Source of the DNA: a virus
Virus record (IMG/VR): IMGVR_UViG_3300037587_000516
Span: 1 to 64,000 of that record
Reading direction: 5' to 3' (one strand)
Length of the DNA: 64,000 bases
Of the stretch, positions 8,041-15,623 are shown piece by piece (the first letter of the stretch is position 1; each line of letters starts with the position of its first letter). Position numbers and translations under genes: made by a program. Below the pieces are notes generated by a model that saw nothing but the letters and a program-made list of their open reading frames with translations, did not search any database and had not been told where the DNA came from.

Positions 8041-8511
8041 GTGACTAAAGTAATGACATTAATCTTATTTTCAGTATTGATGATTGGTTGCGGGACCAGT
8101 TCAGTGATTTACATTCCCGGCGAGCGTGGGGAAAATGGACTGAATGGAAACAGTGGGCACGATTCACTGATTAACTTTAGTGATATAGAGGGCGGCTTTG
8201 TGGTTGCAACGGGGATTGATTTGGATGATGATGGCATTTTGGCACAGACCGAAGTCATGTATCTAAATACTCTCTACAACGGTACTGCTGGCATTAATGG
8301 GACCAATGCAGAGCATGCTATTGATTTAATTATTGATCCGTGTGGCGACGGTAGGGGCATTGACGAGATTGTTTTGATAACCACTAATGGAGTACTAAGC
8401 TGGTATCATAACATCGGGCTAGTTTTATTAGGTGACGGCAATCATACTACTAACGACAGGCAACGTTGCAAGTTTAGTATTGTTAACGGTAGTTTCGTGG
8501 AGGTTGACTAA
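8041..8511 (+). CDS. putative lipoprotein with short collagen-like G-X-Y runs
   Basis: lipobox MIGC; GERGENGLNGNSG; GIDLDDDGIL; GTAGINGTN. Confidence 0.6.
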   Translation: MTKVMTLILFSVLMIGCGTSSVIYIPGERGENGLNGNSGHDSLINFSDIEGGFVVATGIDLDDDGILAQTEVMYLNTLYNGTAGINGTNAEHAIDLIIDPCGDGRGIDEIVLITTNGVLSWYHNIGLVLLGDGNHTTNDRQRCKFSIVNGSFVEVD

Positions 8512-8698: not shown

Positions 8699-8968
8699 GT
8701 GAAAACAATAAAGATAAAGGACAGTGATCATATACCATATAACTTTACAGGAATTGTTGAGTTTGACGGCGGCACTGTAGTTTGGTATTTGAAGGGAGCG
8801 TGGCATAGATTAGATGGACCTGCTTTTGAATATCCTGAGGGCCGTAAGGCTTGGTATTTGAATGATGAGTATATGACAGAAGAAGAACATGCTAAAAAGA
8901 CAGCCTACCGTAGAACTACATTAGGCAAGCTTATTTTTAACAATAAATCAAATTCTATTGGGGGGTAA
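8699..8968 (+). CDS. HRxDGPA-repeat family copy 5
   Basis: family motifs; GTGA overlap with upstream stop. Confidence 0.85.
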   Translation: MKTIKIKDSDHIPYNFTGIVEFDGGTVVWYLKGAWHRLDGPAFEYPEGRKAWYLNDEYMTEEEHAKKTAYRRTTLGKLIFNNKSNSIGG

Positions 8969-8970
8969 CT

Positions 8971-9348
8971 ATGTTTAAAATTGGCGATATTATTACAGGT
9001 AACGGTAGCAGCAGATACGCTATAACTACCGATCAAGGCACATATAGAATTATTACAGAGCCCGACATTAGTGGAAGTTGTGAAATAAAGATAGTTACTC
9101 ATATGACAGATGGGACAGACAGGGAACACTATTCTGTTAACCTTAGTCACTTTATTTTGGTTAAAACAAAGCTTTCAACACTAATTAAGCGCATTGATCT
9201 AGGCAGAAAAGCAATGAGGGATTTAATAGAACATTATAATGATGATACTATAATTAAAGAGTCCGGTAGTTCTGTGGAATATAAACCGAAAGCATTCTTT
9301 CCAGATAACATAGAGGCAGATATTGAAATCATAACGGAAGGCGAATAA
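8971..9348 (+). CDS. SH3-like domain + TLIKR motif protein (paralogue A)
   Basis: MFKIGDII...KLSTLIKRIDLGRKAM. Confidence 0.6.
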   Translation: MFKIGDIITGNGSSRYAITTDQGTYRIITEPDISGSCEIKIVTHMTDGTDREHYSVNLSHFILVKTKLSTLIKRIDLGRKAMRDLIEHYNDDTIIKESGSSVEYKPKAFFPDNIEADIEIITEGE

Positions 9349-9519
9349 ATGTTTTATGTAGCAGAAACAAAATTGGAATGGTTAGCTTTAGTTATAGAAA
9401 ACAGCTACCACTATGGTAGTGATATGGACAAGCAAATAGCTAGACTGTGGTCTCAGTATTTTAATGAAATGGACCCGGCGCTAGGACTTGAAGAAACTTA
9501 TTTTTTAGACAAATAAAGC

Positions 9520-9546
9520 TAAAGTTTCCCCGCAATACTCCGATAA
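9520..9546 (+). promoter_or_regulatory. sigma28-type promoter
   Basis: TAAAGTTT, N15 spacer, TCCGATAA. Confidence 0.75.
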
Positions 9547-9926
9547 GTTTAATATAGGGGGAATAGAAATGATGGACGTAGAAGGAATATACAAAATATT
9601 TATGCCTAACAAATTTGATTGTTACATATACTTGAGATTTAGGAAGGCACCGGTAAAGTTGTATTGCGCCGATGGAAAAGTTGAGATTTTCCTTGACTGG
9701 TTCCTTAGATCATGCGATGGTATGACAAGAGATGATCACAAATTGGCATACTTAAGTGGAAGTGAAGATACGCAAATAATTAACTTAGAGGAAGTAGCAT
9801 GACAAAGAATGACTTTATATCTATTATCATAATAGGGTTTATATTTGCTTTAGTATTTAGTTCATTGCCCGATTCTAAAATCAGTTGGTTGAAACAAATT
9901 CATCCGAATTTAAAAGTGGGGGAAAA

Positions 9927-10289
9927 ATGACATTTAAAGTTGGAGATATTGTAGAGTGTGTTGAAAATGAAGATAGGTTTGTTCGTATAGGGGCGATTGG
10001 TAAAGTTACGTCGGTTGACTCGAGAGGAGTACACTGTCTGTGGACCAGTGGCGATTTTCTCGAAGCATCAAACAATGTGTGGCACATTGAATCGCATAGA
10101 GTCAAACTATTGGCACCAAAGCTTGAAACGTTAATTAAGCGGGCGAATATGGGCGCAAAGGCAGTAGATCAAATACTAAAATATTACCCAAATAGGGTAG
10201 AGACGTATGACGAAAGTCAGGACATGTGCCCTATTTCAATAGAATTTCAGTATTCTGAAGGCGAGGAGGTTTTTTCAATAAAAGAATAA
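9927..10289 (+). CDS. SH3-like domain + TLIKR motif protein (paralogue B)
   Basis: MTFKVGDIVECV...KLETLIKRANMGAKAV; start moved to ATG 9927. Confidence 0.6.
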   Translation: MTFKVGDIVECVENEDRFVRIGAIGKVTSVDSRGVHCLWTSGDFLEASNNVWHIESHRVKLLAPKLETLIKRANMGAKAVDQILKYYPNRVETYDESQDMCPISIEFQYSEGEEVFSIKE

Positions 10290-10294
10290 AAAGC

Positions 10295-10323
10295 TTGCAA
10301 TTTAAAATAAAGCATGAGATAAT
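10295..10323 (+). promoter_or_regulatory. sigma70-type promoter of the Ubl operon
   Basis: TTGCAA-N17-GATAAT with upstream TG. Confidence 0.55.
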
Positions 10324-10369
10324 ATAAACTAAGTAATAACAACCAAACCAATAACAAAAGGAATAAATA

Positions 10370-10567
10370 ATGGCAAAAGTAATTGTAAAAGTACTAGGAA
10401 GCGCACCAAGAGAAATTGATGCAGATTCAGTAGGTGAGTTGAAGTCTGAGTTGGGACTTGATTCTTATTCGGCAAGTGTTAACGGAGATCCTGCCGATAG
10501 CAGCACAGAGCTATCCGAAGGTCAGTTAGTGACATTCGCGCCTAGCGTAAAAGGCGGCGCTAACTAA
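10370..10567 (+). CDS. ubiquitin-like (beta-grasp, ThiS/MoaD-like) protein with GG + 2-aa tail
   Basis: 65 aa; SVGELK..LGL...ASVNG......ELSEGQLVTFAPSVKGG-AN. Confidence 0.85.
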   Translation: MAKVIVKVLGSAPREIDADSVGELKSELGLDSYSASVNGDPADSSTELSEGQLVTFAPSVKGGAN

Positions 10568-10589
10568 CAGAGCCGAAATTATTTTGTGG

Positions 10590-10607
10590 GGGGATAATTC
10601 TATCCCC
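10590..10607 (+). terminator. hairpin between Ubl and E2-like genes (attenuator/stabiliser)
   Basis: GGGGATA-ATTC-TATCCCC stem-loop. Confidence 0.5.
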
Positions 10608-10633
10608 TTAAATTTTAACATCGTGGGGATGAT

Positions 10634-11734
10634 ATGAATGAGTCAGATAATTCTGCAATCGCAGAAAATAGCGAGGTTTTCTTACCTCAGATAATCAAGA
10701 GCGGGTTTGATATGTTTAAGTCCCTTGATGCCAAAATTCGATTAGAGCAAATTAATAAAATTACATATATTGATACCATCTCTAGACAACTAGATCAAGA
10801 TGTTAGTAGTGTAAACTTATTTGAGCTATTTCCAAATAAAGATAGACTGTTTACTTGTAACGAAAGTGAAATAAACAAGATACTGGTTAACTTTACTCCA
10901 GAAACAAAAACAGTAGTGAGAGAGTTACAAAAACTATCATTAACACAAAAAGAAAATATAAAAAAGGCATCCAATTTTTGGAACAAAGACTTTAGAACAA
11001 GAACAGTTCACACAATGGACCGTTGTAATATGGACATTAGAGACCTTACTAGCAGAGTAAATGCTTTGGTAGTAGAACGAAATAAACAGCACCATATACT
11101 AGAGCAATTATCAGATAATGACGGCTCACTTCTAACTAAACAAATTGAAGAAATACTAGAGACAAAAAAATATAAGCTTGCTAGAATAGACGACAGCAAG
11201 ATAGTATTTGAACTACTAGATGACGTGATAAACACGTTTAAAAATACTCGTGCTGGGATTGATTTGCGAGTGAATCTAGGGACATTTACTATTACAGTTA
11301 AATGGGACGGTATGTATTCCGAATTGTCTGGTTTGTCCAATAATACGTGCGTCGGAAGTTTTGTCCATCCTCACTATGATAGACATCCTTGTTTGGGAAA
11401 TTTACAGGAAATTATGCAGGAGGCGCAGAAAGATAAGAACTTAGTGAAAATTATGGAAATTAATGAAACGCTATTGTTAAATTACAATGATGGGAATCCG
11501 TATAAGCCACTAGCAGCCTTCGCAGCACAAAGTAAACAGGTCCAGCCGAATGGTGAGGTTCTTAAGATTGAGGAAGCAGAGCGATGTAGTGAATATGGTC
11601 CAGGCGACTATTATAATTTCGAGTGTGGTGAATGTGGCTATGAGAATGAAATTCAATTTGACGGAGATGGCTATTACGAAGGTAGTTGTGGTGAATGTGA
11701 TGATTATTTTGATCTAGCAGCAAGTGATTTATAG
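10634..11734 (+). CDS. prokaryotic E2-like (UBC-fold) protein with N-terminal coiled coil and C-terminal Zn ribbon
   Basis: HPH-x5-CLG (Cys253) matches the E2 HPN/H...C pattern; CGEC-x16-CGEC tail; operon context. Confidence 0.65.
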   Translation: MNESDNSAIAENSEVFLPQIIKSGFDMFKSLDAKIRLEQINKITYIDTISRQLDQDVSSVNLFELFPNKDRLFTCNESEINKILVNFTPETKTVVRELQKLSLTQKENIKKASNFWNKDFRTRTVHTMDRCNMDIRDLTSRVNALVVERNKQHHILEQLSDNDGSLLTKQIEEILETKKYKLARIDDSKIVFELLDDVINTFKNTRAGIDLRVNLGTFTITVKWDGMYSELSGLSNNTCVGSFVHPHYDRHPCLGNLQEIMQEAQKDKNLVKIMEINETLLLNYNDGNPYKPLAAFAAQSKQVQPNGEVLKIEEAERCSEYGPGDYYNFECGECGYENEIQFDGDGYYEGSCGECDDYFDLAASDL

Positions 11735-11745
11735 GGGGTTATGTT

Positions 11746-12564
11746 ATGGATAAAATTATATTAGGTAGAGAAGTATATGATCAAATTATGTATTACGTTA
11801 ACAAAACTAATTTTGAGATTAGTGGGCTAGGCGCTGTTGAAATTATTGATGGCTTTCCCGTTGTAACAAAGGTTTACTTATTAGATCAAGAAAATAGCGC
11901 GGCAGAAACTGAAATGGACGGCGAGGCAATTACTAAGCTAATGTATGAGCACCATATATCAGGACATCCGGGGGAATTAAAGTTCTGGTGGCACAGTCAT
12001 GTGAATATGTCAGTATTCTGGTCTACTACGGACATGACGACAATTGGTGAGCTAACAGAAAATGGCTGGTTCATTCACGGGGTATTTAATAAAGATTATG
12101 ATTACAAGTTTGCATATACTACTAATGACCCATGTCCAATTATGGTCGACGATATTGAAATGGAAATTGACGAAAATTTGGTTAACTCGTCGATACTCAG
12201 TATATTAGGGGATCTTGCTGTTGAAAATAAAAAACTAGAGGGCGAGTATGATAGTGAATTTGCGGCTAAGGTTACTATAAAAACCTATGTGCCCACCGTT
12301 ACTGACTATTCAAACTTCTACCCTAAGCATAGCGGGGCTACTACTTACACTCCAGACTGGAATAAGGAGATTTTAACATCAGGACAGGATTTGTATGATC
12401 CAGACGAGGTTAAATCAACGGGAGCATTTACGGAAGCGGGGTTTAGGGAACTGTGTGCCGCAGGGTATAGCGATGAAGAGATTCGGTTTTATAATGCGCA
12501 AGATGCATTTTGTTTGGACGAAGTTAATGAACTAGAGATGGCAAGTTGGGTGAATAATACATGA
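11746..12564 (+). CDS. JAB/JAMM metallo-isopeptidase
   Basis: E24 and H83-S-H85-x7-S93-xx-D96 JAMM motif. Confidence 0.85.
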   Translation: MDKIILGREVYDQIMYYVNKTNFEISGLGAVEIIDGFPVVTKVYLLDQENSAAETEMDGEAITKLMYEHHISGHPGELKFWWHSHVNMSVFWSTTDMTTIGELTENGWFIHGVFNKDYDYKFAYTTNDPCPIMVDDIEMEIDENLVNSSILSILGDLAVENKKLEGEYDSEFAAKVTIKTYVPTVTDYSNFYPKHSGATTYTPDWNKEILTSGQDLYDPDEVKSTGAFTEAGFRELCAAGYSDEEIRFYNAQDAFCLDEVNELEMASWVNNT

Positions 12565-13226
12565 AAAATATATTTGGGGACCACGAGCATTTAGTGAGGC
12601 AATTAGACTTAATCCCATTGGATTGTCTAGATAAGAAGATTAACATAATTGGGGCTGGAGCAATTGGAAGTTTCACGGCGCTAAGCTTAGCCAAAATGGG
12701 GTTTAAGGATATTACAGTATTTGATGATGATACTATAGATGTTGTCAATCTTAACTGTCAATTCTTTAGGCATACTGACATTGGAAAGCCTAAAGTTGTA
12801 GCATTGCAAGAATTAATCCATGACTTTACTGGAATTACCATTGAAATAGTTAATGATAGGTGGACCGGAGCTAAGTTAAATGGCATAGTTATTGCCGCAG
12901 TAGATAGTATGGCTGTTAGAAAACAGATCTTTGAAACGCATTATAAAAACGGGTTTCAGACTGATTTAGTGATAGATCCTAGGATGGGAGCAGAAGTGGC
13001 TCTATTAGCCTCATACAAGCCTTTAAGTATAGAGGAAGGGCAAACGTATAGCAAGACTCTATATAGCGACGAGGATGCCGTACAAGAGCCCTGCACCGCC
13101 AAAAGCTCTATGTATTGCTGTCTAAGTCTATCGGGCATGGTTTGTTCAATGGTTAAGGCGTTTGTAACTGGCAATGAGTTTCCTAGGTGGAAAACCTATG
13201 ACATTGCTAAATTTGACATGGTATAG
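12561..13226 (+). CDS. ThiF/E1-like Ubl-activating enzyme
   Basis: RQ arginine finger, GAGAIGS nucleotide loop, DDD..NLNCQ, GKPKV, AVDS..VR; candidate catalytic Cys178 (EPCTA). Confidence 0.9.
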   Translation: MKNIFGDHEHLVRQLDLIPLDCLDKKINIIGAGAIGSFTALSLAKMGFKDITVFDDDTIDVVNLNCQFFRHTDIGKPKVVALQELIHDFTGITIEIVNDRWTGAKLNGIVIAAVDSMAVRKQIFETHYKNGFQTDLVIDPRMGAEVALLASYKPLSIEEGQTYSKTLYSDEDAVQEPCTAKSSMYCCLSLSGMVCSMVKAFVTGNEFPRWKTYDIAKFDMV

Positions 13227-13235
13227 GGGGTTAGT

Positions 13236-13808
13236 ATGTCTAGAGAAATTAGAGAGGGCGATAGGGTTAGGTTTACTGGCACAGCGTCTCATGAGGATAT
13301 AGCGAACGGTGGTATTTATACTGTCCAAAGCATTATTAACTCGGGAGGGCATGATTACGTATGTTATATGCAAGATAATAGCTATAACGAACGCTTATCA
13401 GATTTTGAGCTAGTAGAAGATAGACCAACCAGAGCATTTAGAGTTGGTGATAGGATAAAATGCGCTAGTGTTGCTCCAAATTATGGTAGTGATCCGGTTA
13501 TTGGTCAAGTATATGAAGTGTGTGGTATTGAGTTGGCGTTTGATTGGGTTAGGGTTATCTACGGGGAAAGGACTATGCGGTTTTTGTCTCGCGATTTTGA
13601 ACTAGTAGAGCGCGAATACTCAATAGAAACGCTTATAAAAAGAGCCAATTTAGGATTAAAGGCCATGCATGAGCTACAATCTAAATATCCTAGTGAGGCC
13701 GGTATTACATTTGAATCTGGTAAGGTCTCTTTTTCTAATGGAATTGCTTTTTGTTATGACGACAGTGACGCAGAAAACCCGCCGACGATAGTAAAATTAC
13801 TGTTTTAA
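13236..13808 (+). CDS. tandem SH3-like domains + TLIKR motif protein (paralogue C)
   Basis: IREGDRVRF..DFELVE / FRVGDRIKC..DFELVE; IETLIKRANLGLKAM. Confidence 0.65.
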   Translation: MSREIREGDRVRFTGTASHEDIANGGIYTVQSIINSGGHDYVCYMQDNSYNERLSDFELVEDRPTRAFRVGDRIKCASVAPNYGSDPVIGQVYEVCGIELAFDWVRVIYGERTMRFLSRDFELVEREYSIETLIKRANLGLKAMHELQSKYPSEAGITFESGKVSFSNGIAFCYDDSDAENPPTIVKLLF

Positions 13809-13818
13809 TATAATCGTA

Positions 13819-13862
13819 GCATGGTGGGGTAACCTCCCCACAATAACCCCGCCATGCGTTTT
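13819..13862 (+). terminator. stem-loop closing the Ubl transcription unit
   Basis: GCATGGTGGGGT / ACCCCGCCATGC 12-bp stem followed by GTTTT. Confidence 0.6.
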
Positions 13863-14075
13863 CTAGGAGGCTACTATGCAAAAATCGTGCCAGGGAATAT
13901 GTACACTCTTTTATATGTTATACAACAGTTTAGTATATTAACATATGGGGGATTTAATTAGGGTTTACTTTAAGCATAAGAAGAGCAATAAGAAGTTGAT
14001 AACCATTATCATCTTACTAGTATTTGTTCTCATACCGTATACAGTCATAGTACACAACTTTTTTTAAAATAAAGC

Positions 14076-14104
14076 TTGACAACATTTTGAAAGTCTAGTA
14101 TAAT
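14076..14104 (+). promoter_or_regulatory. sigma70 promoter
   Basis: perfect TTGACA-N17-TATAAT. Confidence 0.85.
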
Positions 14105-15347
14105 AGTAAATGGAGAGCCAATGATATATATAATAATATCTATTATAGCATTTGGATTAATAGTATTACTTGAGTATCTAGGAGTATTAGAGTTAATGAT
14201 ACTTATATTCATAGTAACTGTGATTAAAGTTTTCGGCTCTTAAGCATAGCTTTGTCCAATTCTGGAGGGAATGAAATGAAACGAGAAATGACAACACATG
14301 AAGACCTGGAGAGATACCTACTAGCTAACCCAATGATGGGCGATTACAGGACCAGAGTACAACAGTCACTAATGTTGTTTCATGATAGACCATTAATGAG
14401 GTTTGAGCTAATACTGGATATAACTATCGTCTTATTAGAGGAAATATCTGATCAGATAAATGAACTAAAGCCAAAATTTGGAGTGGAGGAAAAATGAAAG
14501 GTTTAAAAATAACAGTTGAACAGACGATAACGAGCCTAATAACAATAACAGCAACCGCTCCTGGGTTTAATGAAACCCACTATACTTCGGCGTTAACACT
14601 TATGTTCTTTAGTAAGTCCGAAAAACATTTGCGCAGAGATATAGAAAAGATAAAAGATGGCATAAAAGGCCGATATAAAGTATGCACAGAGTCTAGTGAG
14701 GAAAAATGATTGAAATACTAACAGTTATGTGTATAATTAGCGTTAACCTTACTAATACTGATACTAGTATGATAGTAACGCAAGGTAACGCAATCAATAC
14801 CGATGGCGACTACTGGACAGTAGACTTCTATGAGAGCCTGTCCGAAGGTGGTTATAACATGGATTTGAATACTGGAGCCCAAACTGTTAATTCTAACGAA
14901 TGTAATATTGTAAAGTTACGAAAGGCTAAGTAATGAAAATACAAAAAGGACAGCGGGTATTTTTAGAGGCGAACAATTCTCCATATGGGGGCAAATTCCT
15001 AACAGGAATGGTCACTGAGCTATATGTAAAAGATACTGATAAGATGGCCGAAGTGTTTCTGGACCAGTCCATAACCATTCACGTAAAGCAGGATAAACTA
15101 ACCGCGATTGAGAGCACCAAATGAGTGATAAATTAATACTAGACCCGCAGTTAATTATGAACGACCTACTAAGAGATAACGAGCGATTAATTATTGAAAA
15201 TAATGCTTTACAAGGTAGTATTAGTAGGTTAGAATTATTATTAGATAGAGTTAGGGAAATTGGAAGCGATGCCATAACAGGCCGCGAAGAATTTAGACTG
15301 GAAAATGAGAAGTTAAAAGCTGAATTAATGGGAGTTAATACTAAGCA

Positions 15348-15623
15348 ATGAGAGTGTTTAAAGGAGGTTTTGGTAATATACCAAATAAATTCACAGGAAT
15401 TGTCGAATCGCAAGGTGGGAATAAGTATTGGTTTTTGAAGGGTAAACACCATAGAGTAGGTGGGCCTGCTGTTGAGTGGTGGGACGGCACTTCGTCCTGG
15501 GGGTTGAATGGTGAATGGATAACAGAAGAAGAGCATTCTAGAAGAACTGCATGGACTAAAACAACACTGGGCAGATTGATATTAAAAGAGGATTATTTTA
15601 AACTAACGGGAGAGATTAAATGA
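15348..15623 (+). CDS. HRxDGPA-repeat family copy 6
   Basis: family motifs; ATGA overlaps at both ends. Confidence 0.85.
   Translation: MRVFKGGFGNIPNKFTGIVESQGGNKYWFLKGKHHRVGGPAVEWWDGTSSWGLNGEWITEEEHSRRTAWTKTTLGRLILKEDYFKLTGEIK

Follow-up and report, generated by a model that had tools for sequence, protein, structure and literature searches.

In this study, we analyzed the first 64,000 nucleotides (hereafter the window) of the IMG/VR virus record IMGVR_UViG_3300037587_000516, in which four adjacent genes on the + strand, at 10370-13226 (about 2.9 kb), encode a ubiquitin-like protein (Ubl), an E2-like conjugating enzyme, a JAB/JAMM metalloprotease and a minimal E1 activating enzyme, in this order. 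We propose, with a probability of about 0.6, that these genes form a self-contained, horizontally mobile cassette for Ubl-protein conjugation, which the phage expresses in the infected cell. A genuine thioester relay from E1 to E2 that ends in protein conjugates, each step of which we infer, is likely, and host proteins may possibly be the main targets, although we put this last point forward only tentatively.

The virus record is a complete 87,126-bp genome with direct terminal repeats. According to the single DNA sequencing run that contains the stretch, which is probably the source sample, this uncultured phage comes from marine sediment, and no RNA sequencing runs that contain the stretch are listed. 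By gene content it is a tailed phage, with a ribonucleotide reductase, a primase-helicase, a DNA polymerase and an exonuclease encoded on the + strand and the virion proteins on the - strand, the virion module being at 51-64 kb. Small + strand genes surround the cassette, which precedes the genes for replication. Its genes are closely packed, with gaps of 66 bases between Ubl and E2, 11 between E2 and JAB and 9 between E1 and a fifth gene, while JAB and E1 overlap by 4 bases, and all four components are single-copy in this genome. Each of the four genes has relatives in other loci (E value 1e-12 to 1e-130), which rules out chance open reading frames (ORFs); because of these relatives and the invariance of the named residues, we consider the four genes to be real. 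The initial annotation, which had been made from the letters of the window, described four genes with specific catalytic residues as a complete Ubl-E2-JAB-E1 set on a phage. Every one of these features was found where it had been placed, and the composition of the set is backed by fold, motif and synteny on a genome that is itself complete.

The E2-like protein (366 aa; 10634-11734, + strand) carries the motif H245-P246-H247, five residues and C253-L254-G255, followed by the cysteine pairs C331/C334 and C352/C355. An exhaustive profile search of metagenomes recovered a large family, with 1360 representatives (clusters at 50% identity) at E <= 0.001, 725 at <= 1e-10 and 97 at <= 1e-30. Among 50 spread-out relatives, only Y45, G216, H245, P246, C253 and G255 are invariant, and I80/N81 are nearly so. 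When the family profile was compared with all PDB sequences, the best 45 rows were all ubiquitin-conjugating enzymes (E 0.0019-0.037), and the alignment laid HPHV..G..C over YHPNINSNGSIC of Ubc4/UbcH5, placing HPH on HPN, C253 on the catalytic Cys and the next helix of the family on the E2 helix that ends in a conserved Pro. The third motif residue is His in the window protein, where classical E2s have Asn. The Pfam family UQ_con was matched by 4 of the 50 relatives at E <= 0.01 (best 2.1e-05), and the window protein did not match it at E <= 1. The E2-like proteins are a distant, separate family of the ubiquitin-conjugating (UBC) fold.

The fold was also sought by structure prediction. A full-length model built from 4 sequences reached a predicted local distance difference test (pLDDT) score of only 69.8, with a poorly modeled active-site loop; it gave no Foldseek match at E <= 0.001, and its VIA-align rows were dominated by helical hairpins. 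We therefore replaced it with an AlphaFold2 (AF2) model of residues 160-366 built from 54 sequences, which reached a pLDDT of 92.1. In a VIA-align comparison of this model with 48,161 representative chains, the best 14 rows were all E2s (Z 6.3-7.4, root-mean-square deviation 3.3-4.6, 118-131 residues aligned over model residues 1 to about 159), and the remaining rows were nearly all E2, RWD or UEV domains, including Cap2 (7to3_A) at Z 5.4. E2s likewise made up most of the Foldseek list, at probabilities reaching 0.90 and target-normalized template modeling (TM) scores of 0.40-0.48; the Bil E2 8tz0_D appeared only at rank 50, and SAMP- or Bil-type E2 rows were not noticed high in the lists. We give weight to this assignment because the list is uniform, the whole domain is covered and the result agrees with the sequence alignment. 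Thus, in the model the C-terminal part of the 366-aa protein has a UBC (E2) fold, and the initial annotation, which had made its reading depend on such a fold in this protein, is borne out on this point, with only E2/RWD/UEV folds recovered by the model and with HPH...C253 aligned to HPN...Cys.

Three parts can be distinguished in the E2-like protein. The model gives a helical N-terminal domain (residues 1-165; 10634..11128, + strand) with a long helical hairpin at residues 103-158, modeled at a block pLDDT of about 64-87 and conserved across the family, for which no informative fold match was found and for which the ESM Atlas gave no usable match. The predicted UBC-fold catalytic core, defined by both the model and the profile, follows at residues about 160-325 (11111..11608, + strand) and holds the candidate catalytic C253. 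A C-terminal zinc-ribbon of the CxxC...CxxC type (11609..11719, + strand) completes the protein; its cysteines C331, C334, C352 and C355 are invariant in all four close relatives, the model shows four strands in the last 40 residues, and zinc-ribbon Pfam families are matched by single relatives. A second, shorter E2 paralogue was observed in several related loci, before the main E2 in L005 (5138-5995) and after E1 in L007 (5512-6462), L008 (5443-6393) and L009 (8691-9641), which hints at several E2s with different targets.

The tag itself (Ubl; 10370..10567, + strand) is a 65-aa beta-grasp protein of the ThiS/SAMP2 type that ends in SVKGG followed by an AN tail. The window protein matches Pfam ThiS at E 0.0044, which is below the cut-off, and among 16 relatives ThiS was matched by three and SAMP2 by one. 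A profile of these 16 relatives found SAMP2 in the PDB (5lda_B, 7.9e-06; also 1rws_A, 1.7e-05), with the 5lda_B alignment running over the full length and ending at the Gly-Gly. K61 is invariant and G62/G63 are nearly invariant in the 16 sequences, and 13 of them carry 1-22 extra residues after the Gly-Gly, the other three carrying none. That the tail is usual and yet not universal suggests that the constant job of the protease would be deconjugation as well as maturation. Because an invariant Lys stands right before the Gly-Gly, trypsin should leave a ubiquitin-like di-Gly remnant on the targets, and in that case standard di-Gly remnant proteomics could reveal the substrates. In a 182-kb IMG/VR phage (L016), a second, weak Ubl-like ORF lies at 8135-8410 (2.6e-07), about 2.5 kb downstream of the cassette.

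The protease (272 aa; 11746..12564, + strand) has the JAMM residues E24, H83-S-H85, S93 and D96, and its C-terminal half is variable. E24, H83, H85, S93 and D96 are invariant in all seven relatives, and a profile of these relatives found the Rpn11-like 6fjv_A in the PDB (7.6e-05), followed by proteasomal Rpn11/PSMD14, and the motif residues line up. The entry 6fjv_A comes from Candidatus Caldiarchaeum subterraneum. In the ESM Atlas, the nearest clusters of the protease are 91-100% viral among labeled members, and 13-23% of the members carry Prok-JAB.

The E1 (221 aa; 12561..13226, + strand) consists of a single ThiF-type adenylation domain, and its start overlaps the JAB stop. It scores 73.6 bits against a cut-off of 28.1 for Pfam ThiF and finds solved E1s in the PDB at about 1e-10. 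R13, G31, G33 and G36 (GxGxxG), D55, D57, N63, Q67, K78, D115, R141 and C178 are invariant in all 17 sequences. ThiF and MoeB have a structural zinc site of four cysteines in two CxxC pairs. The phage E1, which has six cysteines and no CxxC pair, lacks this site, and C178 alone among the cysteines is invariant. No rhodanese domain was found in the protein with Pfam, and 221 aa leave no room for a CYS or UFD domain. With the NCBIfam equivalogs for ThiF, MoeB, UbaA, MoeZ, PRTRC ThiF and cap2_3, the E1 stayed far below the cut-offs, the best score being 68 bits against 159.

The four genes recur together in other loci, as a survey of synteny suggested by the initial annotation brought out in both metagenome and IMG/VR viral sequences. 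A metagenome scan with E2 gave nine loci, five of which (L003, L005, L007, L008 and L009, the last three being near-identical) contain the complete order Ubl-E2-JAB-E1; the other four are contigs of 1.5-4.0 kb with E2-JAB, E2-JAB-E1 or E2-Ubl-JAB. The last of these orders was seen on the short contig L010 (93-1817), in place of Ubl-E2-JAB. An IMG/VR scan with E1 gave 17 loci, of which 13 contain E2-JAB-E1, ten of these with a detectable Ubl upstream, and the remaining four, which have neither E2 nor JAB, give only partial ThiF-like matches; L006 and L016 seem to represent one phage in two collections. The contigs of the cassette carriers are 37-182 kb long and have unrelated flanks, and E2 is kept in every complete locus. 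When all ORFs across the loci were clustered, only the Ubl, E2, JAB and E1 families recurred, the next families being antisense ORF artefacts or confined to the L007-L009 lineage. Since only these four families recur in unrelated surroundings, the cassette appears to be self-contained and mobile.

Outside these collections the family is sparse. Among catalogued phages, blastn of the region found nothing, tblastn of E2 found nothing at 1e-3, and tblastn of E1 found only matches of 25-31%, in 29 Flavobacterium phage records (the FpV4 group) and Dulem virus 41. In Flavobacterium phage FpV4 (L011, NC_041872.1, 3656-5588; genomes of the group are 88-92 kb), a ThiF-like gene, annotated in the group as 'thiamine biosynthesis protein', is 31% identical to E1, and the 423-aa protein encoded directly upstream gave a weak Prok-JAB match (E 0.0076). 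Family profiles found no E2 or Ubl in this neighborhood, so that by these profiles FpV4 is not a cultured example of the full cassette, and a motif scan gave only one unrelated Gly-rich tail; the locus may represent a cousin that lacks E2, in phages that can be cultured. A search of viral contigs with the single E2 or an E2 alignment gave no related locus, and a word-indexed protein search returned four proteins in the first search and three in the profile search. In cellular genomes, a scan with E1 patterns across one genome per prokaryotic species gave three partial ThiF-like matches only. Genome G001 holds the Chryseobacterium-labeled locus L029; in a sample of 401 genomes from its phylum, the E2 profile matched one. 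The single match (L034; genome G076, contig 3, 1109888-1113151) has Ubl, a 97-aa E2 ORF, JAB and E1 in cassette order; this E2 ORF covers the catalytic core only and may represent either a minimal E2 or a prophage copy that has decayed. Among 20 representatives or cluster members of the E2 family that were looked up, one bore an organism label (Lokiarchaeota), another was named 'hypothetical protein' only and the rest were metagenome proteins. The labeled one, which is the second-best family member (P0005, NCBI NVM46730.1, 3.3e-114), is a hypothetical protein on a 9.9-kb contig of a Candidatus Lokiarchaeota metagenome-assembled genome, and this contig is either viral and misbinned or points to Asgard archaea as hosts of some carriers.

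We propose the following pathway for the cassette, on the basis of established knowledge of E1-E2 cascades and of the conserved catalytic residues in all four proteins. The JAMM protease would remove the two residues after Gly63 of the Ubl, and the minimal E1, probably a homodimer like ThiF/MoeB, would adenylate Gly63 and take the Ubl onto Cys178 as a thioester. The Ubl would then move to Cys253 of the UBC-fold E2, and, because the cassette has no E3 ligase, E2 would hand it directly to target lysines. The choice of target may be made by the N-terminal helical domain of E2, by its zinc ribbon or by both, and the JAMM protease could also reverse the mark. As the minimal E1 lacks a UFD-type domain for E2 docking and E2 has a conserved extra domain, we propose that this N-terminal domain docks E1, selects substrates, or does both. 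A complex prediction with two copies of E1, Ubl and E2, in which E2 was scored, gave 0.34, 0.12 and 0.00 in its runs against a mark of 0.32, without controls, and carries no weight either way on the question of binding. The targets would be encoded outside the cassette, and our best guess is that they are host proteins, modified in early or middle infection for takeover or counter-defense, anti-defense being only one option for the purpose. The initial annotation suggested that host defense proteins would be inactivated or host Ubl defenses countered; JAB, however, fits none of the PADLOC defense models, and the E1 fits those of Cap2 in its Rossmann part alone. We would weakly rank host proteins above competing phages and these above the phage's own proteins, because the cassette lies ahead of the replication genes, moves between unrelated phages and has no conserved neighbor.

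Several observations weigh against this interpretation. At E <= 1, neither the E2 nor the JAB of the window itself matches a Pfam family: the E2 protein gave no match to Pfam at this threshold, PHROGs, PADLOC, NCBIfam or the PDB, with chance-level rows only in a phmmer search of the single sequence against the PDB, and the JAB protein gave no match to Pfam at the same threshold (including JAB and Prok-JAB), PADLOC or NCBIfam and none by phmmer against the PDB. The active site of the window's E2 has HPH and a spacer of 5 residues in place of HPN and 7 residues; UQ_con is found in only 4 of the 50 relatives, and the profile reaches solved E2s only at a marginal level (E 0.002). For the model of residues 160-366, Foldseek had 0 matches at E <= 0.001, and the best VIA-align Z of 7.4 is middling (Z < 8) by the tool's own note. 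For E1, the alignment to solved E1s spans residues 24-125 only; because these alignments stop at residue 125, C178 is assigned by its position to the crossover loop, where it may correspond to the catalytic Cys of non-canonical E1s. Trimming of the tag is also not universal, as the tail is missing from 3 of the 16 Ubls, and the early or middle timing of expression is suggested by gene position only.

The cassette resembles several known systems, and its architecture, with a minimal E1 and a UBC-type E2 of the classical motif (HP...C) that has extra domains of its own, is distinct. Like BilABCD in the accessible text of the sources, it has four separate genes for Ubl, E2, JAB/JAMM and E1, a Ubl in which Gly is followed by a few non-conserved residues, and no E3 (PMC10557695; 10.1101/2023.09.04.556158). 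However, the E1 of that system, BilD, is described there as eukaryote-like, with IAD-AAD-CYS domains and a zinc site (PMC10557695), whereas the phage E1 is a 221-aa single domain with neither. The active site of BilB is, in the same accessible descriptions, a Cys with an adjacent downstream His, in contrast to the upstream HPH of the phage E2 that aligns with the eukaryotic HPN, and the phage E2, unlike BilB as described, carries a zinc ribbon and, at its N-terminus, a large helical domain. Moreover, Bil is encoded by bacteria against phages, while the cassette described here is encoded by a phage. As its E1 lacks the IAD-AAD-CYS architecture that defines the system in the available description (PMC10557695), membership of Bil was rejected. 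In the compact operon of Candidatus Caldiarchaeum subterraneum, as far as the accessible part of the paper describes it, the JAMM protease (Rpn11) acts in pro-Ubl cleavage and in deconjugation, as we propose for the phage, and the cascade consists of an E1 and a UBC-type E2 (PMC5654768); its tag is of the ubiquitin type and it includes a RING E3, whereas the phage has no E3, a SAMP2/ThiS-like tag and an E2 with extra domains.

The archaeal SAMP/UbaA/JAMM1 system shares with the cassette a minimal non-canonical E1 and a JAMM protease, and SAMP2 proteins are the best solved relatives of the phage Ubl. Sampylation needs no E2, whereas E2 is present in all complete loci of the cassette, and the phage E1 reaches 35.6 bits against a UbaA cut-off of 450, so that membership of the SAMP system was ruled out. 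Type II systems of antiphage signaling by cyclic oligonucleotides (CBASS), with Cap2 and Cap3, also combine E1, E2 and JAB activities in one conflict-related operon. Here the phage E1 matched the PADLOC Cap2 'E1-E2' models at 1.6e-12, over the Rossmann part only (residues 20-104), and JAB matched no PADLOC model. The C-terminus of a CD-NTase is what Cap2 acts on; across the loci, conservation does not extend to a fifth gene family, a result obtained without a search aimed at CD-NTase. Cap2 is an E2-E1 fusion, whereas in the phage the individual genes for E1 and E2 stand on either side of JAB and the substrate would be a free Ubl; as they are not fused, membership of the Cap2/Cap3 group was rejected. 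The accessible text of a preprint has the Cap2-type E2-E1 protein conjugating the pathway's own signaling enzyme and not a separate tag (PMC11601596).

Mobile bacterial operons with Ubl, E2, E1 and JAB were described earlier by Iyer, Burroughs and Aravind in 2006 (rows 6b-6d, including PRTRC), and in the accessible part of that paper they appear, like the phage cassette, as sporadic mobile operons with the same component types (PMC1779556). The E2-like proteins of rows 6c and 6d are reported there without the classical conserved His (PMC1779556), whereas the phage family keeps HP before the Cys, and the phage examples seen in that part of the paper comprise Ubl and JAB only, in tail clusters, without E1 or E2 (PMC1779556). 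Membership of PRTRC was ruled out, since the phage E1 scores 37.8 bits against a PRTRC_ThiF cut-off of 144.75. The E1 and E2 of the Bub ('6E'/DUF6527) operons use serine rather than cysteine, which sets the phage cassette, in which Cys is invariant in both E1 and E2, apart from them. According to the accessible text on these operons, they are a diverged bacterial ubiquitination-like family that likewise has E1, E2, Ubl and a peptidase (PMC11601596). Viruses of Asgard archaea have been reported, in the accessible text of a preprint, to carry E1-like genes only (10.1101/2021.07.29.454249).

Other purposes of the cassette have to be weighed against the tagging of host proteins. It might be a phage-carried defense for superinfection exclusion, in which the structural proteins of competing phages would be tagged as in Bil, spoiling their assembly and protecting the host cell. 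The four component types are the same as those of BilABCD, which, in the accessible parts of the reports, tags a phage tail protein (10.1101/2023.09.04.556158; PMC11601596), the cassette shows the mobility and the non-conserved flanks commonly seen in accessory conflict genes, and one cellular genome carries it. However, Ubl, E2 and JAB have no PADLOC model, E1 matches the Cap2 models only in the Rossmann part and differs in architecture from BilD as described in the available text (PMC10557695), and the cassette is located among early and replication genes; no integrase was noticed, although none was specifically searched for. In addition, a match to the family came from only one of the 401 cellular genomes in the sample, and the JAB clusters nearest to this protease are almost wholly or wholly viral among labeled members. 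We consider this explanation improbable. Slightly less probable still is that the phage tags its own proteins, marking, cross-linking, timing or stabilizing virion or replication proteins, with JAB later removing the tag. Pairs of Ubl and JAB do occur in phage tail-assembly clusters, as in the lambda-type TAPI/TAPK given in the accessible part of the 2006 paper (PMC1779556), and the lack of a target gene conserved beside the cassette would fit targets elsewhere in each phage genome. Nevertheless, the carriers have unrelated flanks and contigs of very different length, so that a shared phage-encoded target is not evident, and in this genome the cassette lies outside the virion module, which is on the other strand.

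It may also be asked whether any protein is conjugated, since the Ubl could be a sulfur carrier that forms a thiocarboxylate like ThiS, MoaD or CysO, or an acyl carrier that passes to a lipid or small molecule like ATG3, with JAB only maturing or recycling the carrier. Ubl and E1 both belong to the ThiS/ThiF type, among solved structures the Ubl comes closest to SAMP2-type proteins, and sulfur-assimilation operons that combine JAB, ThiS/MoaD-like proteins and E1 are listed in Table 1 of the 2006 paper, within its accessible part (PMC1779556); host enzymes could still supply the sulfur. Against this, an E2 with an invariant HP...C site is found in every complete locus, and a thiocarboxylate pathway has no use for an E2. 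The initial annotation had stated that thiamine, molybdopterin and sulfur-relay genes are absent, and this proved correct across the whole 87-kb genome, where profiles for Rhodanese, Aminotran_5, PP-loop ATP_bind_3, MoaE and ThiG gave 0 matches each; the genome thus encodes no rhodanese, desulfurase, PP-loop, MoaE or ThiG protein that these profiles detect, and E1 itself has no rhodanese domain. A thiamine or molybdopterin pathway was rejected, given the lack of partner genes in the genome and the presence of E2, and with E2 invariably present and a sulfur-relay partner missing from the genome, we regard a carrier role as very unlikely, the least probable of the explanations considered here.

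If protein conjugation by the phage is accepted, it has a broader meaning. The characterized cases of prokaryotic Ubl conjugation are so far on the side of the cell, against phages (CBASS Cap2/Cap3, Bil), or in archaeal housekeeping, and a complete phage-side cascade would add protein tagging to the tools used by phages for host takeover and counter-defense. The initial annotation knew of no characterized phage-side version, and likewise we found no description of a complete phage-encoded Ubl-E1-E2-JAB cascade in the full-text literature that could be searched, a coverage that leaves out most subscription journals and supplementary operon lists. More speculatively, and in our view doubtfully, tailed phages of prokaryotes may run Ubl conjugation of their own to rewrite the proteome of the infected cell, without an E3 and by means of the N-terminal targeting domain of an E2 family that retains the classical HP(N/H)...Cys site, and phages may be a major overlooked reservoir of classical-type E2s; we raise the latter because of the large size of this family (1360 clusters at 50% identity) and because viruses apparently carry it. 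If this were true, it would be the counterpart in prokaryotic viruses of the use of ubiquitin by eukaryotic viruses, and the phage reservoir would bear on the origin of the eukaryotic E2 repertoire. Because the cassette is small, self-contained and without an E3, it is directly testable by heterologous expression.

The signals around the cassette were also analyzed. The initial annotation had placed four genes between a sigma70-like promoter and a stem-loop, of which the stem-loop stands and the promoter is not supported. The promoter-like site at 10295..10323 (+ strand), TTGCAA-17-GATAAT with TG, is weak and agrees with the consensus at 9 of 12 positions, and 24 sites of that grade were observed in 9500-14500 against 18.8 +/- 5.0 in shuffles, which is a chance-level match. 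The terminator-like stem-loop at 13819..13857 (+ strand) has a 12-bp stem, a 15-nt loop and then GUUUUCU; it folds at -24.5 kcal/mol (z -2.21; 4 of 200 shuffles were as good), and a terminator scan did not call it because its loop is longer than 8 nt. As the stem-loop lies 3' of the fifth gene (190 aa; 13236..13808, + strand), the unit between the two signals consists of five genes, not four. This fifth gene encodes an SH3-like paralogue with a TLIKRANxGxKA module and is outside the conserved cassette: its relatives were found only in L003, where they do not adjoin E1, and it is absent from the families conserved across the loci.

Within the cassette, the 66-nt spacer between Ubl and E2 contains a hairpin at 10587..10610 (+ strand), with a 10-bp G+C-rich stem, a 4-nt loop and then the U-rich UUAAAUUUU. 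The whole spacer folds at -17 kcal/mol, which is not significant against shuffles (z -1.14). We speculate that this hairpin might be a partial terminator that attenuates read-through, by which more tag than enzyme would be made.

Two gene families bracket the cassette. Three paralogues, at 8971-9348, 9885-10289 and 13236-13808, each combine an SH3-like/DUF4314-like N-terminus with the TLIKRANxGxKA module, and that at 9885-10289 matches Pfam DUF4314 at E 0.0023; in L003, which is the closest relative locus, four copies of this SH3-like paralogue lie nearby, none of them next to its E1. A family with HRxDGPA repeats has two members, at 8699-8968 and 15348-15623, which flank the cassette region. 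Just 3' of the transcription unit, at 14076-14104, there is a perfect sigma-70 consensus, TTGACA-17-TATAAT (12/12), which argues for a bacterial host.

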